The notes below the pieces were generated by a model. That model did no database searches. It saw nothing but the letters and a program-made list of their open reading frames with translations, and had not been told where the DNA came from. Below are positions 41,394-51,703 of a stretch of DNA of 64,000 nucleotides, piece after piece. A program made the position numbers and the translations under genes. Source of the stretch: a virus. Taxonomy: Duplodnaviria; Caudoviricetes. Within the stretch, counting starts at the first letter, position 1; the number at the start of each line of letters is the position of its first letter. Location of the stretch: positions 1-64,000 of the IMG/VR virus record IMGVR_UViG_3300028833_000094, one strand, 5' to 3'.

Positions 41394-41786
41394 ATGGGAA
41401 ATATAAAGTTGCATAACATGGAAGTAATGGAGCAAGCTAAGTATAGGGCAAGACAAATGGATACTTGGCCTTCTCCATTAGAAGAAAGAATGAAAGAGTT
41501 CTTAGACAGGCACTATGTGGAATATGAGTCTCAAAAGATATTCTATATCTATGCTGATGATGGATGGATAATAAGGTATTATATAGCTGATTTCTATATA
41601 CCAGAGAAAGAGGTTATTATAGAGGTAGATGGTAAGTTCCATGATGAACACAAGCTACATGACAAGAACAGGACTAAGGATATTCAAGAACAGTATCCTT
41701 CTATAGAGGTATTAAGGTATAGGTGGAAAGATTTGTCTGATATGGATAAAATGGATGATCTATTGTGTAGGATAAACGCTATATAA
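41394..41786 (+). CDS. DUF559/Vsr-like endonuclease
   Basis: SPLEE, YIADFY, IEVDGKFH, EVLRY; ATG at 41394 is the likelier start. Confidence 0.85.
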   Translation: MGNIKLHNMEVMEQAKYRARQMDTWPSPLEERMKEFLDRHYVEYESQKIFYIYADDGWIIRYYIADFYIPEKEVIIEVDGKFHDEHKLHDKNRTKDIQEQYPSIEVLRYRWKDLSDMDKMDDLLCRINAI

Positions 41787-41838: not shown

Positions 41839-41869
41839 TTTGGTGAAATAACTTTATTTTGTACCTTTG
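41839..41869 (+). promoter_or_regulatory. Bacteroidota primary-sigma promoter
   Basis: TTTG(41839)-19 nt-TACCTTTG(41862). Confidence 0.7.
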
Positions 41870-41900: not shown

Positions 41901-42212
41901 ATGAAAGGGTTAAAGGAGTATCTTAGGAAACATGGTAGACACTTTACTGAGGAACTGGCTCATGCTGTCATGGGGAATACTTGGACCTATGATGAGATAG
42001 ATGCCATCATCCAGAAGAAGGTATACTATAATGTTTCTGGTTGTACTAAGGGGGATATAGTTTATTTCTGTAATGGAATGAATTTATATACCAAGCATGA
42101 TATTATAAAGAATGTGATTCCCATGCTTATGACAGTAGATGCCTATGAGGATATATTTACCTTATGGGCCAAAGTATATGGGGATTGCTTTGATTTTACC
42201 AAGTTTGTATAG
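41901..42212 (+). CDS. Hypothetical protein
   Basis: YLRKHGRHFTEELA; has its own promoter. Confidence 0.75.
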   Translation: MKGLKEYLRKHGRHFTEELAHAVMGNTWTYDEIDAIIQKKVYYNVSGCTKGDIVYFCNGMNLYTKHDIIKNVIPMLMTVDAYEDIFTLWAKVYGDCFDFTKFV

Positions 42213-42261
42213 AATAATTTTCTGTTTTATAATTATTTAAGAAATTTTGTTCAAGTAAAAT

Positions 42262-42292
42262 TTTGGTATTATATTATTAGTTTGTATCTTTG
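42262..42292 (+). promoter_or_regulatory. Bacteroidota primary-sigma promoter
   Basis: TTTG(42262)-19 nt-TATCTTTG(42285); no ORF follows. Confidence 0.7.
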
Positions 42293-42294
42293 CA

Positions 42295-42722
42295 GCGACC
42301 CTTGGAAGTAGTAGTTCCATGTTCAGGCTATTAAGGTCCAGTGGATATATAGAGCCTTAGAAGTCGGGTTGTAAGTGCTTATAGCACTGAGATATTCAGG
42401 ATACTCAAGCCCCGATAGGTCAAAAAATGCTTGGTTATAAGTCTGGTGTCCCGCCTAACTACTATGGGAAAGAGGCTGAGGGTAAAGTGGACATTAGGGA
42501 GTTCTAAAGCTTACGAGTTAAGTTTATACTGACCGCCCAGATGAAGTGCCAAGTTAATGAGGTTAGGAAAATCCTTTAGGGACTTCTTATACCTTTTTGA
42601 ATAGTAAAATATCTCAGGCTATGCAGCTGTTGTGAAACACCTGTGTACTTACAAATACTAGGATACAATTTAAAAAGTGTCTTCAAGATAAGAGAGGCCT
42701 AAGTGTAGGCTTCTCTTTCTTT
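42295..42722 (+). ncRNA. Candidate large structured ncRNA (about 420 nt)
   Basis: Promoter upstream, terminator hairpin at 42690-42722, no ORF of 60 aa or more in any frame, many complementary segments. Confidence 0.6.
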
Positions 42723-42726
42723 ATTT
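42690..42726 (+). terminator. Intrinsic terminator
   Basis: AAGAGAGGCCTA-AGTG-TAGGCTTCTCTT hairpin followed by T-rich tract. Confidence 0.75.
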
Positions 42727-42796
42727 CTTAGCATTATCCTAAGATTCATTGTACCTAAAAGATTGTTTCTTATTTTTGCAACAAAATAAGAAGAAT

Positions 42797-43405
42797 ATGA
42801 ATAAATATTTTATTGCAGCTATAGTGGTTCTCTTTGCTACCATAGGATTTATGTGGAAGCAAGTAAGGGATGCAAATGAGAAATGGAAGGTTTCTGAGGG
42901 TAATGTAAAGGCCTATGCATCCATGTTTGACAATAGCAAGAAACAGAATGCTGCTTTGCTATTGACTGTAGATCAGCTTGAATATTTCAAGGATTCTGTA
43001 CTTCAGGAGCTTGATGCTACCAGGAAGGAACTGAAGGTAAAGGATAAGGACTTAAAGGCTTTACAGCAGGTTAAGTCCAGTTTCTCCAGGACAGATACTA
43101 TTACAATAACCCAGGTGGATACTTTGTTTAAAGAACCCTCCTTGGCTATTGATACTGTATTGGGAGATGAATGGTATAAGCTTAATCTAGGACTTAAGTA
43201 TCCTTCTACGATTGCAGTAAAGCCATACTTTAAGAGTGAGAAACATATCGTAGTCTCCAGTAAGAAAGAGACTGTTAATCCTCCAAAGAAGTTCTTTCTT
43301 TTGAGATGGTTTCAGAAAAAGCATCGAGTTCTTCATATAGATGTTGTTGAGAAAAATCCTTATGTGAGTGATGAAACTAGTAGATACGTTGAGATTATCA
43401 GGTAA
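42797..43405 (+). CDS. Spanin (Rz)-like lysis protein, putative
   Basis: Single N-terminal TM, coiled coil, DTxT repeats, KKFFLLRWF...NPY C-terminus. Confidence 0.6.
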   Translation: MNKYFIAAIVVLFATIGFMWKQVRDANEKWKVSEGNVKAYASMFDNSKKQNAALLLTVDQLEYFKDSVLQELDATRKELKVKDKDLKALQQVKSSFSRTDTITITQVDTLFKEPSLAIDTVLGDEWYKLNLGLKYPSTIAVKPYFKSEKHIVVSSKKETVNPPKKFFLLRWFQKKHRVLHIDVVEKNPYVSDETSRYVEIIR

Positions 43406-43431: not shown

Positions 43432-44616
43432 TTATCTATTTGAATTTTCTGTTTTTGTTTTTCCTCCTGCCTGTGAAGGTGGGAGGTTTTTAATGGCTTC
43501 CACTACTGTCTCATCCAATAGCTTGGCATATACCTGTTCTGTAATCCTGGTAGAGGAGTGACCACATATTCTGGATACTATCTGCATGGGTACCCCTTCA
43601 TTTAATAATAAGGTAGCTCCTGTATGTCTTGCCCAATGTGTACTCAGGGGTTTGTCTATTCCAGATGATTGTGCTACTACCTTCAGGTACTCATTGTACT
43701 TGACATTGGATATAATGGGTAGTCTGCCATTATATTTCATCAGGATATTCCAGGCAGGGGATAGGATAGGGATGGTAAAGGGTTTATCTGTCTTCAGCCT
43801 GTGTCCAGTATAGACCTTCATATCTTTAATCTCTTGTACAGATTTTATATTAAAGTATCTCAAATCCGAATAGCTTAGACAGGTATAGGTTTGGAAAATA
43901 AACACATCTCTGACTTTCTCCAGACTTTCAGTAGGCATCTTAGAGGTTTTTATCTTATGGAATTCTTCTGGAGTCAGGCATTTCTCAAGACTCTTTATGT
44001 CCCTGCCTTTATCTATACAGATATTCTTATAGGGATTCTTAGTCATGTGACCTTCATTAATAGCATCCAAGATGACAGAATTAAGATGCCTGTGGTAATT
44101 ATGCCATTTAGTATAGAGACACATTCCCTTACTTGCCAGGTAATTGTCAAAAGCTATAAGATTTAATTCATTTACATCCTTGAATCTCTTAATACCTCCC
44201 CATTCTTTAAAGACTTTCAGAAACAAGTTGTACCTGTCTATGCTTCTTGGAGCCTTACCATATTTCCTTATATCAAATCTCTGATGACAATAATCCAGGA
44301 AATTAATATTCTTTCTCTGAATCTTTAACCTGGCTGGTATGGAGAATATATCTATATTCCCCTCATTGGTCATATCAAGGAGTATCTGCCTTACATCAGT
44401 AAGCATCTTATCCAGAGTACTGCTAATCTGAAGGATATCAGGACAATTCAGGATCTTCCCTTTCTTCCACTGGTTTATATACAGCATGATACCAGTGGCA
44501 ATGTACTTTTGCTTATAGTTATAGGTAATTCTCATCTCTACTGCAGACTTTACAGTAAGGGATGCATTCTTTCTTCTGTTGAACACAAAAGTGATTTGAG
44601 GCTGTTTGTTAATCAT
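43432..44616 (-). CDS. int: Tyrosine integrase, Bacteroidota (IntDOT-like) type
   Basis: N-terminal arm-binding pattern (VEMRITY..KQKYIATGI...QW), TCLSYSD, RLKT, HWARH, GHSS, VYA. Confidence 0.92.
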   Translation of the reverse strand: MINKQPQITFVFNRRKNASLTVKSAVEMRITYNYKQKYIATGIMLYINQWKKGKILNCPDILQISSTLDKMLTDVRQILLDMTNEGNIDIFSIPARLKIQRKNINFLDYCHQRFDIRKYGKAPRSIDRYNLFLKVFKEWGGIKRFKDVNELNLIAFDNYLASKGMCLYTKWHNYHRHLNSVILDAINEGHMTKNPYKNICIDKGRDIKSLEKCLTPEEFHKIKTSKMPTESLEKVRDVFIFQTYTCLSYSDLRYFNIKSVQEIKDMKVYTGHRLKTDKPFTIPILSPAWNILMKYNGRLPIISNVKYNEYLKVVAQSSGIDKPLSTHWARHTGATLLLNEGVPMQIVSRICGHSSTRITEQVYAKLLDETVVEAIKNLPPSQAGGKTKTENSNR

Positions 44617-44664: not shown

Positions 44665-44894
44665 TGTAATAAATAAAAAAGTAGGGTGTAATAAATATGT
44701 AATAAATTAAGGGCTAAAAAATGGATGATAGGCCTGTATTTCCTACCATCCCTTGGGTTCTTAGTACACCCGCAGGGGTTCGAACCCTGGACACCCTGAT
44801 TAAGAGTCAGGTGCTCTACCAACTGAGCTACGGGTGCATGTTGAGGGGGTATGTAATGAATTTTAGGAAGAGCTGTCATAAATATGTAATGAAT
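44665..44894. mobile_element. attP-like site: tRNA-Lys core flanked by six arm-type repeats
   Basis: TGT(A/C)AT(A/G)AAT at 44665, 44687, 44698 and 44852, 44874, 44885. Confidence 0.7.
44765..44837 (-). tRNA. tRNA-Lys(CTT)
   Basis: GCACCCG/CGGGTGT acceptor, TAGCTCAGTTGGTAGAGC, CCTGA-CTCTTAA-TCAGG, GGTTCGAACCC. Confidence 0.96.
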
Positions 44895-50434: not shown

Positions 50435-50467
50435 TTTGAGCAAAAGCCTTTCAAATCAGTACTTTTG
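50435..50467 (+). promoter_or_regulatory. Bacteroidota promoter for the capsid operon
   Basis: TTTG(50435)-21 nt-TACTTTTG(50460). Confidence 0.6.
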
Positions 50468-50509: not shown

Positions 50510-51703
50510 ATGGCAATGTTAGATTTTAACAACATCCTTGGTGAGCAGGAGATTGATGGCCTGTTCTCAGATACCGAGGAACCTGCTACTCAGGAGGAGT
50601 CAGCAGAATCTGACAAGGAGAAGTCAGATGGGACAGTAAATGGTGATACACAAAAGACTACTGAGGTTGTAAATCCCGATGACCTTTTTAGTGGAGACAC
50701 GATTGAGGAAGAAGAGGAGAAGACACAGCCAGAGAGCGTAGGTAGTGGAAAGAATAAAGAGGAAAAGGAAGATGCCACCGCTGGTAAGGGCAGTGACACT
50801 TCTCCAAACTTCTACTCTTCCATTGCCAATGCCTTGGCAGTGGATGGTATCTTCCCCAACTCTGATGAAGCTGCAGTAAGCAAAGTGGACTCTGCTGAGT
50901 CACTCAGTGAGTTGATTGAGGCAGAGATTAATGCCCGCTTTGATGATAAGCAGCGTAGGATTTCAAAAGCTCTTGAGAATGGTGTGGAGCCCAGTCAGAT
51001 TAGGCAGTATGAAGGAGTACTGGAACAGATTTCCAATATTACTGACAATCAGTTGACTGCAGAGAGTGAAGAAGGAGAACGTCTGAGAAGAAACCTGATT
51101 TATCAGGATTATCTCAACAAAGGCTATACTCCAGAGAAAGCTCAGAAGATGACTCAGCGCACCTTTGATTCAGGAACAGACATTGAGGATGCAAAGGATG
51201 CCCTCCAAGGCAACAGGGAATTCTTCCAGGCTCAGTATGATAAACTGTTGGAAGAGGCCCAGAAAGCAGCAGAAAAGGATAAGGCAGAGTTGCAGAAGCA
51301 AGAAGCCAATCTGAAGAAGAGCATTTTGGAAGACAAGCAACTGATGGGAGACATGGAGTTGAATCAGGATGTCAGGAAGAAAATCTATGATAACATCTCC
51401 AGGCCAGTGTACAGAGACCCAGAATCAGGTCAGTACCTGACAGCCCTTCAGAAGTATGAATCAGAGAATCATGCAGACTTTATGAAGTATGTAGGTCTCT
51501 TCTACACATTGACTGATGGCTTTAAAGACTTTAAGAGTTTTGCCAAGGCTGAAGTCAAGAAAGAAATGAGAAAAGGTCTTAGGGAGTTGGAACAGACCCT
51601 GAATGGTAGCAGGAGGACTTCAGATGGTAGTCTTAACCTGGTAGGAAGCAGGAAAGAAGATCCAGAATCATTCCTCAGCGCAGGATTTAAGCTAGCTCTC
51701 TAG
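50510..51703 (+). CDS. Acidic protein preceding MCP (putative scaffold)
   Basis: Highly acidic N-terminus, coiled coils, directly upstream of MCP as in crAss-like phages. Confidence 0.7.
   Translation: MAMLDFNNILGEQEIDGLFSDTEEPATQEESAESDKEKSDGTVNGDTQKTTEVVNPDDLFSGDTIEEEEEKTQPESVGSGKNKEEKEDATAGKGSDTSPNFYSSIANALAVDGIFPNSDEAAVSKVDSAESLSELIEAEINARFDDKQRRISKALENGVEPSQIRQYEGVLEQISNITDNQLTAESEEGERLRRNLIYQDYLNKGYTPEKAQKMTQRTFDSGTDIEDAKDALQGNREFFQAQYDKLLEEAQKAAEKDKAELQKQEANLKKSILEDKQLMGDMELNQDVRKKIYDNISRPVYRDPESGQYLTALQKYESENHADFMKYVGLFYTLTDGFKDFKSFAKAEVKKEMRKGLRELEQTLNGSRRTSDGSLNLVGSRKEDPESFLSAGFKLAL

Follow-up and report, generated by a model that had tools for sequence, protein, structure and literature searches.

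A predicted stand-alone gene for a compactly folded RNA in an exchangeable slot beside the integrase of Prevotella phages

The window analysed here is a stretch of 64,000 nucleotides, the first 64 kb of a 116,467-base IMG/VR virus record (IMGVR_UViG_3300028833_000094). At positions 42262-42726 of its plus strand lies an ORF-free unit, bounded by a promoter on the 5' side and a strong terminator on the 3' side. The following features make up the locus:

41397-41786: gene for a DUF559/Vsr-like endonuclease, upstream of the RNA
41901-42212: ORF of 103 aa, upstream of the RNA
42262-42292, plus strand: Bacteroidota-type promoter, with a -33 box TTTG (42262-42265), a 19-nt spacer and a -7 box TATCTTTG (42285-42292)
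42685-42726, plus strand: intrinsic terminator, a 12-bp GC-rich stem (42690-42717) followed by a U tract, from terminator prediction
42797-43405: gene for a membrane-anchored DUF6549/phrog_14010 protein, downstream of the RNA and with a TAnnTTTG box of its own
43432-44616, minus strand: tyrosine integrase gene, downstream of the RNA
44764-44837, minus strand: tRNA-Lys gene, downstream of the integrase

The large terminase is encoded further downstream, beyond the tRNA-Lys gene. The RNA gene is in a swappable accessory slot beside the integrase and not in a lysis or packaging operon, and the placing of it near the lysis and packaging genes in a preliminary description, which was made from the letters of the window, has to be given up.

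Boxes of the TTTG and TATCTTTG type are the -33/-7 consensus of Bacteroidota sigma-A promoters, and transcription would start near 42297. A pattern scan for TTTG-N18-21-TAnnTTTG gave three matches in the 64-kb window (at 41839, 42262 and 50435), while 1.15 are expected. The other two perfect consensus promoters (41839-41869 and 50435-50467) are found upstream of the 103-aa ORF and of a gene starting at 50510, respectively. In the homologous loci L142, L010, L158 and L164 and in the L143 group, both boxes stand at an unchanged distance from the RNA. The terminators of related cassettes occupy the equivalent position and use another stem sequence.

The ORF list holds no ORF longer than 36 aa between promoter and terminator; the two short ORFs inside the unit have 26 and 33 aa. 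No reading frame was found to be kept open across the homologues. The longest stop-free stretch shifts in strand, frame and place from one homologue to another and is only 40 codons long in L143, and the alignments show loops with indels of 1 and 2 nt, i.e. not multiples of three. All the sequence elements named in the preliminary description are present, and its account of a TTTG-19-TATCTTTG promoter, an ORF-free tract and a strong terminator (a 12-bp stem with a T tract) is right; the conserved small ORF that could have explained the region otherwise was not found in any frame across the homologues. The folding energy is mildly unusual when compared with shuffled sequences (z = -2.1 for the plus strand and -1.4 for the minus strand). 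The thermodynamic argument is weak on its own, and the case rests on comparative evidence.

We collected 11 sequence-distinct versions of the RNA from IMG/VR phage records, ruminant metagenome contigs and four MAG contigs of Prevotellaceae or Bacteroidales. The first homologues came from loci carrying the downstream gene, namely L002 (99% identical) and L010 (76%). Motif scans starting from conserved blocks gave the metagenome contigs L138-L145, and the same approach gave the viral contigs L148, L151 and L164 and the MAG contigs L155 (Prevotella sp., goat caecum), L158 (Prevotellaceae), L162 (Bacteroidales, rumen) and L163; several of the exact-motif scans returned mostly chance matches. Two covariance models, R1 for domain 2 and R2 for domain 1, reached more divergent members, i.e. 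L166 (Prevotella sp. RGIG8056, water-buffalo rumen), G552 (L187) and G597 (L188). The homologues score 87-155 bits with R1 and 73-158 bits with R2. The copy in L163 (CAAGQJ010000026.1, 88.6 kb), which is binned as 'Bacilli bacterium', aligns and scores identically to the copy in L164, a 122.9-kb IMG/VR phage record, and L163 is probably a mis-binned phage contig.

The family is rare. It is present in 2 of the 151 sampled genomes of the genus Prevotella; a BLAST search of 401 genomes of the family with the Prevotella copy returned only that copy (1/401); and in 185,579 species genomes exact motifs matched 4-5 contigs. The family is carried by about 8 viral records, one of 48 further related viral records has the RNA, and BLAST of three family members against 50,697 GenBank phage records gave no match. 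Five viral records were searched whole, four of them estimated to be at least 90% complete, and an integrase was found in all five. Overall, the RNA is carried by integrase-bearing gut and rumen phages of Prevotella with genomes of ~110-125 kb, and leftover copies are found in a few Prevotella chromosomes.

These chromosomal copies indicate that Prevotella is the host. They were found via the RNA itself and form a biased sample, on which we put little weight in regard to selection. In Prevotella RGIG8056 the copy has housekeeping surroundings, with a glutamine synthetase gene to one side and a polysaccharide locus to the other. Directly after it comes a 206-aa portal fragment (L167:10323-10943; G518:C72) that matches the N-terminal first quarter of the 827-position phage portal family phrog_6547, and the locus looks like a small prophage remnant. 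In Prevotella RGIG1804 (L155) the copy has a degenerate promoter and is part of an AT-rich island of 1.2 kb that separates ribE from purU. In the same island a 22-nt unit, GTAAGTCATATACTTTTGTAGT, occurs five times in tandem, at ~500 nt upstream of the RNA (L155:2040-2160). The L162 copy covers domain 2 onward only and is flanked by a type III restriction gene and a Mokosh-like helicase gene. An association with defence islands was considered and dropped, since this partial copy is the only one so placed.

We derived the structure by RNAalifold on 8 sequences (55 pairs, 28 of them compensatory), refined it by hand, and counted the pairs on 9 and then on 11 sequences. In the common core of ~260 nt (42297-42554), an A-rich linker connects a domain with a four-way junction to one with a three-way junction. 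The elements of the fold, all on the plus strand, are as follows:

42297-42421: domain 1, built as a four-way junction; pairing is at 90-100% in every helix, and all helices have compensatory changes
42297-42300 with 42418-42421: P1, the closing stem of domain 1
42303-42319: P2, a hairpin with the 7-nt loop GUAGUAG
42309-42314: UAGUAG of the P2 loop, the 5' strand of the kissing interaction with 42459-42464
42325-42329 with 42353-42357: P3, with an inner triloop hairpin at 42337-42345 (UCC-AGU-GGA)
42363-42368 with 42411-42416: P4, with an inner hairpin at 42374-42388
42422-42428: single-stranded A-rich linker AAAAAAU, in which AAAAA is nearly invariant in all homologues
42429-42554: domain 2, a three-way junction; 95% paired, 16 of 22 pairs compensatory
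42429-42435 with 42548-42554: P5
42441-42446 with 42537-42542: P6, opening together with P5 into the three-way junction
42448-42451 (GUCC) with 42489-42492 (GGAC): P7, which is CCCC/GGGG in L166
42453-42455 (GCC) with 42474-42476 (GGC): P8, in which the pair G42453-C42476 changes from G-C to A-U (5 versus 5 sequences)
42459-42464: CUACUA of the P8 loop, the 3' strand of the kissing interaction with 42309-42314
42477-42487: internal loop UGAGGGUAAAG, near-invariant, with GGGUAAA identical in 11 of 11 sequences
42497-42498 (GG) with 42533-42534 (CC): P9, followed by tandem G.A pairs that are Watson-Crick pairs in L166
42507-42525: P10, a hairpin of wholly different sequence in L158, L155 and L164, with the pairing kept
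42555-42600: domain 3, a long hairpin with base AAUGAG/CUUUUU and tip UCC-UUUA-GGGA, found in all lineages except the L143 and L164 groups
42604-42684: lineage-specific 3' tail, with hairpins at 42616-42650 (GAAA-type loop) and 42660-42683

Over the 50 tested pairs and 11 sequences, 95.3% of the cells are paired; shifting the 3' partners by 1-3 columns leaves 32-46%. Changes on both sides were observed in 32 of the 50 pairs, and in 2-9 with slid partners. None of 500 shuffles reached the observed covariation score. The covariation supports 12 helices and one pseudoknot, and it is strand-specific, as the G.U pairs are valid on the plus strand only. Three unpaired motifs, i.e. the UGAGGGUAAAG loop, UAUAA and the A-rich linker, persist in lineages whose other positions differ by ~30%, and such a pattern is typical for tertiary contacts or binding sites.

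The two domains are joined by a 6-bp loop-loop pseudoknot, which is 100% paired in all 11 sequences in seven versions: UAGUAG/CUACUA, UGGUAG/CUACCA, UUGUAG/CUACAA, UGGCAG/CUGCUA, UAGCAG/CUGCUA, UCACAG/CUGUGA and UCAUAG/CUAUGA. One alignment column pair (22-203) takes five pair types, AU, CG, GU, GC and UA. An independent repeat search placed the kissing pair among the three longest inverted repeats of the region. The pseudoknot is predicted to clamp the two domains, and as far as the sequence goes the contact may be made either within one molecule or between two.

Our structure agrees in part with the pairings that had been proposed for the region. Five of the nine covary (42325/42353, 42364/42411, the hairpin at 42374-42388, 42430/42549 and 42442/42537). 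The proposed pair 42454/42562 clashes with the covarying GCC/GGC of P8, and the bases of 42336/42488 belong to the covarying local hairpin UCC-AGU-GGA; both pairs break in L142, L010 or L164. The perfect 10-bp pair 42387/42608 does exist; dinucleotide shuffling produces a perfect 10-mer complement 11% of the time, and L010, L142 and the lineages without the tail do not preserve the pair. The GAAA-capped hairpin is present (42616-42650) in one lineage only and shows no covariation. Pseudoknots had been deduced from crossing pairs, and one is indeed there, formed by 42309-42314 and 42459-42464, while the two pairs from which they had been deduced are unsupported. The general idea of a large, ornate phage non-coding RNA of unknown class is borne out by the 12 covarying helices and the pseudoknot, and the covariation check among homologues that it had called for gave the compensatory pairs counted above.

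The conserved RNA is the first ~260-310 nt, and the last ~120 nt are a lineage-specific tail; the unit of ~420 nt is as the preliminary description had it, and the conserved RNA is only its first part. The L143 and L164 groups end at a terminator-like hairpin right after domain 2, so the minimal core of the family is about 260 nt. The stems of domain 3 vary in a compensatory way (AGGU/ACCU, AGGU/GCCU, AGUC/GGCU and AGUU/AACU), as read from the alignment and not formally counted. Domain 3 was also considered as an intrinsic terminator, and is not called one since its U run is base-paired inside the hairpin. The fold of 42604-42726 has z = -3.2, and the tail is common only to L002, L142 and partly L010. 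Both strands of the P4 internal loop have perfect, nested complements in the tail, at 42369-42376/42647-42654 (8 nt) and 42387-42396/42608-42617 (10 nt). These complements are within chance by shuffling and neither is kept in L142 or L010; they could form a lineage-specific alternative conformer.

Other lineages differ at their ends as well. In the complete 123-kb phage G549 the RNA is separated from the shared terminator by a tRNA whose anticodon loop is of the CAU type (L010:2820-2888); the tRNA is inside the promoter-terminator unit of the RNA and hence should be co-transcribed with it. An extra structured leader of ~140 nt, ending in a hairpin and a U run, was observed between the TAnnTTTG box and domain 1 in L166 (1204-1352), L187 (2100-2250, minus strand) and L188 (1200-1350). 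Since L166, L187 and L188 have no promoter directly upstream of the RNA, processing from longer transcripts is possible.

The RNA gene behaves as an insertion-like cassette, since no RNA separates the orf103-like gene from the DUF6549 gene in L006, where the two are neighbours at a distance of 113 nt. In L003 and in L005, L007 and L009 the same promoter and an equivalent terminator surround wholly different ORF-free inserts of ~450-550 nt. The alternative inserts are of two mutually unrelated types:

L003:2440-2945: alternative insert
L006:585-1075: alternative insert
L009:2366-2900: alternative insert
L005 and L007, 1905-2470: alternative inserts

Both types have the hairpin-loop motif UUAAAGCAGGUUUU in common. 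The cassettes of L003, L005 and L009 were considered as family members and rejected, as they show no relationship by R1 or R2. The L003-type insert has a homologue elsewhere in L006, and 14 compensatory pairs between the two sequences suggest that it is probably another structured RNA. The alternative inserts are probably further large RNAs in an exchangeable RNA slot. The genome G552 has an alternative cassette in the slot and a divergent copy of our family ~40 kb away. The family as a whole occurs in at least four contexts: the integrase slot, beside a DUF559-like gene, divergent from an amidase-portal operon (G552) and upstream of an RNase H gene (G597). The bacterial copies lie between unrelated genes.

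We compared the RNA with the known families. Rfam 15 (4227 covariance models) at the gathering score gave two tRNAs only in the whole window, and nothing in the RNA region. With E up to 10, the best matches in 42100-42900 are GibS (22.6 bits; threshold 115) and BTnc231 (16.2 bits; threshold 80.4). These matches have E about 1 and are located on the terminator tail. The homologues and the alternative cassettes gave nothing beyond tRNAs in Rfam. ARAGORN predicted only a tRNA-Arg and the tRNA-Lys in the window, both outside the RNA region, and we found no description of the RNA in the literature.

Membership of individual classes was considered and rejected case by case. ROOL and GOLLD have no model match even at E up to 10, and they measure ~580 to ~800 nt against the ~300 nt and two junctions found here. 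Bacterial RNase P RNA gave no Rfam match of type A or B, the sole pseudoknot is a variable loop-loop helix, and no GGAAAGUC-type RNase P motif was seen on reading the window sequence. For a tmRNA or tRNA-like RNA nothing came from ARAGORN or Rfam. Group I and II introns have no Rfam match in the region, the unit has its own promoter and terminator, and the flanking ORFs are complete, and adjacent in L006. The earlier exclusion of a tmRNA, and of an RNase P or group I core, therefore stands. The downstream elements differ in every lineage, at odds with a riboswitch or cis-leader class, and a HEARO-type nuclease-associated RNA is contradicted by nuclease homologues without the RNA and RNA copies without the nuclease. 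A retron or DRT template RNA was rejected as no RVT_1 match was found in G000, G549, G550, G551 and G552. Since every membership test that we ran failed, the RNA is filed as a new family. Our analysis predicts that positions 42297-42725 form a stand-alone gene whose product is a compactly folded non-coding RNA of this family, and we are nearly certain that it is a real structured RNA gene.

The function that we favour, at a confidence no higher than middling, is that of a shaped RNA acting in trans. The host RNA polymerase would start at the consensus Bacteroidota promoter and end at the intrinsic terminator. The first ~260 nt would fold into two multi-helix domains linked by the A-rich strand and locked by the 6-bp loop-loop pseudoknot, with the hairpin of domain 3 following. 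The RNA would then act in trans and be recognised by its tertiary structure. Its partner might be further molecules of the same RNA or a protein, i.e. a host or phage factor for which it would serve as a scaffold, sponge or decoy. It would not be a cis-regulator, an mRNA or a simple antisense RNA. The RNA is independent of its neighbours, as the downstream gene has its own conserved promoter, the two flanking genes adjoin each other without the RNA in L006, and the family occurs in the several contexts listed above. A point against the proposed mechanism is that no gene neighbour is conserved. An accessory, moron-like role in infection or lysogeny is suggested by the position beside the integrase, in a promoter-to-terminator cassette that can be swapped. 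As the family is small and rare, purifying selection for a function in trans is argued from the structure alone.

An unlikely alternative is that the RNA is a ribozyme, either self-cleaving or catalysing RNA processing, e.g. of phage tRNA precursors. Its size, multi-junction fold, pseudoknot and invariant unpaired nucleotides are typical of ribozymes, a tRNA is in the same transcription unit in L010, and the phage of the window encodes tRNAs. However, none of the Rfam ribozyme families matches (RNase P, group I and II introns and small self-cleavers among them), we recognised none of the known catalytic core motifs, and the link with a tRNA is seen in one lineage only.

It also seems improbable that the RNA regulates by base pairing, e.g. 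by targeting phage or host mRNAs as the immunity or superinfection-exclusion RNA of a temperate phage. Such a role would fit its location beside the integrase, near the region of early/late divergence, the strong host-type promoter that could fire in a lysogen, and the copies that persist in Prevotella chromosomes by phage debris. However, the loops that vary most are paired with one another instead of with an external target, those single strands that are conserved are short and rich in A and U, and the chromosomal persistence is a biased observation, the copies having been found by searching for the RNA.

The small nuclease gene near the RNA raises the question of a ribonucleoprotein in the manner of HEARO/IscB or the TnpB omega-RNAs, with the RNA as partner or guide of the DUF559-like (Vsr-type) nuclease. 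The genes concerned are:

41397-41786 of the window: DUF559/Vsr-like gene, at most ~0.5 kb upstream of the RNA
L142:885-1238: DUF559/Vsr-like gene, directly upstream of the RNA
L143:2593-2994: DUF559/Vsr-like gene, directly downstream of the RNA (L143 group)
L164:735-1136: DUF559/Vsr-like gene, directly downstream of the RNA (L164 group)

The D...EVD catalytic motif is intact in the window and in L142. It is replaced, with loss of the catalytic Asp residues (AQF, EINP/EIPY), in the L143 and L164 copies, which are probably inactive judging from this motif; the replacement and the repeated adjacency could be taken in favour of a partnership. However, seven viral contigs encode homologues of the nuclease with 64-79% identity and have no RNA within 2.5 kb, and no such gene stands beside the RNA in L010, G552 and the bacterial loci (G597 was read on the downstream side only). 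The pattern fits a free-standing homing endonuclease, and we read the nuclease as a homing-type enzyme of the same variable region and not as an obligate partner, which makes an RNA guide for it decidedly unlikely. HEARO and the IscB omega-RNA are likewise structured RNAs of a few hundred nt adjoining a small nuclease gene, as in some lineages here. They differ in that the neighbour in our case has a DUF559/Vsr-like PD-(D/E)xK fold and is not IscB or HNH-RuvC, the association is facultative, and the Rfam HEARO model gives no match.

A related case is found in phage T4, whose stable RNAs species 1 and 2 (rnaC and rnaD) are RNAs of the tRNA cluster with unassigned function, in a region colonised by free-standing homing endonucleases. 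Like our RNA, they are phage-encoded, lie with or near tRNA genes and belong to a region of homing endonucleases. They are shorter, however, and the tRNA linkage of our RNA is limited to one lineage (L010); the likeness is one of kind.

Control of downstream read-through by a cis-acting leader or riboswitch is highly unlikely. It would be suggested by the L143 and L164 groups, where the terminator-like hairpin after the core is followed by an ORF ~90 nt away, and by domain 3 ending in a U run. But this U run is paired, as described, and what lies downstream varies: the tail and terminator, a tRNA, a nuclease-like ORF, RNase H, the portal fragment or a convergent ribE. In addition, the next gene in the window has its own conserved promoter, and the gene pair occurs without the RNA. 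In the lysine and cobalamin riboswitch aptamers the arms of a multi-way junction are clamped by loop-loop kissing of ~6 bp, and our RNA shares this kissing-loop clamp. It is larger than these aptamers, consists of two domains, has no consistent downstream gene or expression platform, and does not match them in Rfam.

That there is no RNA gene at all, and the region holds a decayed or very small protein gene or a chance spacer structure, as the ORFs of 26 and 33 aa and an energy z of only -2.1 might suggest, is virtually excluded and already refuted by the lack of a shared open frame, the indels that are not multiples of three and the massive strand-specific covariation with its plus-strand G.U pairs.

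The RNA has its nearest counterparts in ROOL and GOLLD, large ornate RNAs of prophages and bacteria (PMC5737381, PMC12286853). They too are large, multi-junction and pseudoknotted and have their own expression signals (PMC5737381, PMC12286853). As with our RNA, they occur sporadically in phages, prophages and a few bacterial genomes, often near tRNA genes, and have no assigned function. ROOL was also first seen in rumen metagenomes, and loop-loop contacts matter in the assemblies of both. Our RNA differs from them in having no sequence or covariance-model similarity to either and only two junctions; its conserved part of ~300 nt is about half of the 581 nt of ROOL. The hosts are Bacteroidota and their phages here, and Bacillota or Fusobacteria for ROOL and GOLLD.

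We speculate, as a possibility that is itself doubtful, that the RNA represents a new functional class of Prevotella-phage RNA, e.g. a new ribozyme or RNA-only oligomers built through its loops, exchanged as a cassette with at least two unrelated large RNAs of the same slot. If the oligomer reading is true, the rapidly covarying complementary loops would pair between molecules, as in ROOL and GOLLD.

Large RNAs of bacteria and phages with complex covarying folds are rare, and they have turned out to be ribozymes, riboswitches, cores of ribonucleoproteins and, lately, RNA-only cages. The phage group that carries our RNA is very abundant and hard to cultivate, and to our knowledge almost nothing has been reported about its non-coding genes. 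The small size of the family tempers an otherwise high interest for RNA biology and for the phages of this group. The fold is defined well enough for experiments, with 12 helices and a kissing loop for which natural compensatory variants are available. The exchangeable RNA cassette suggests that these phages trade structured RNAs in the way that morons or anti-defence genes are traded.
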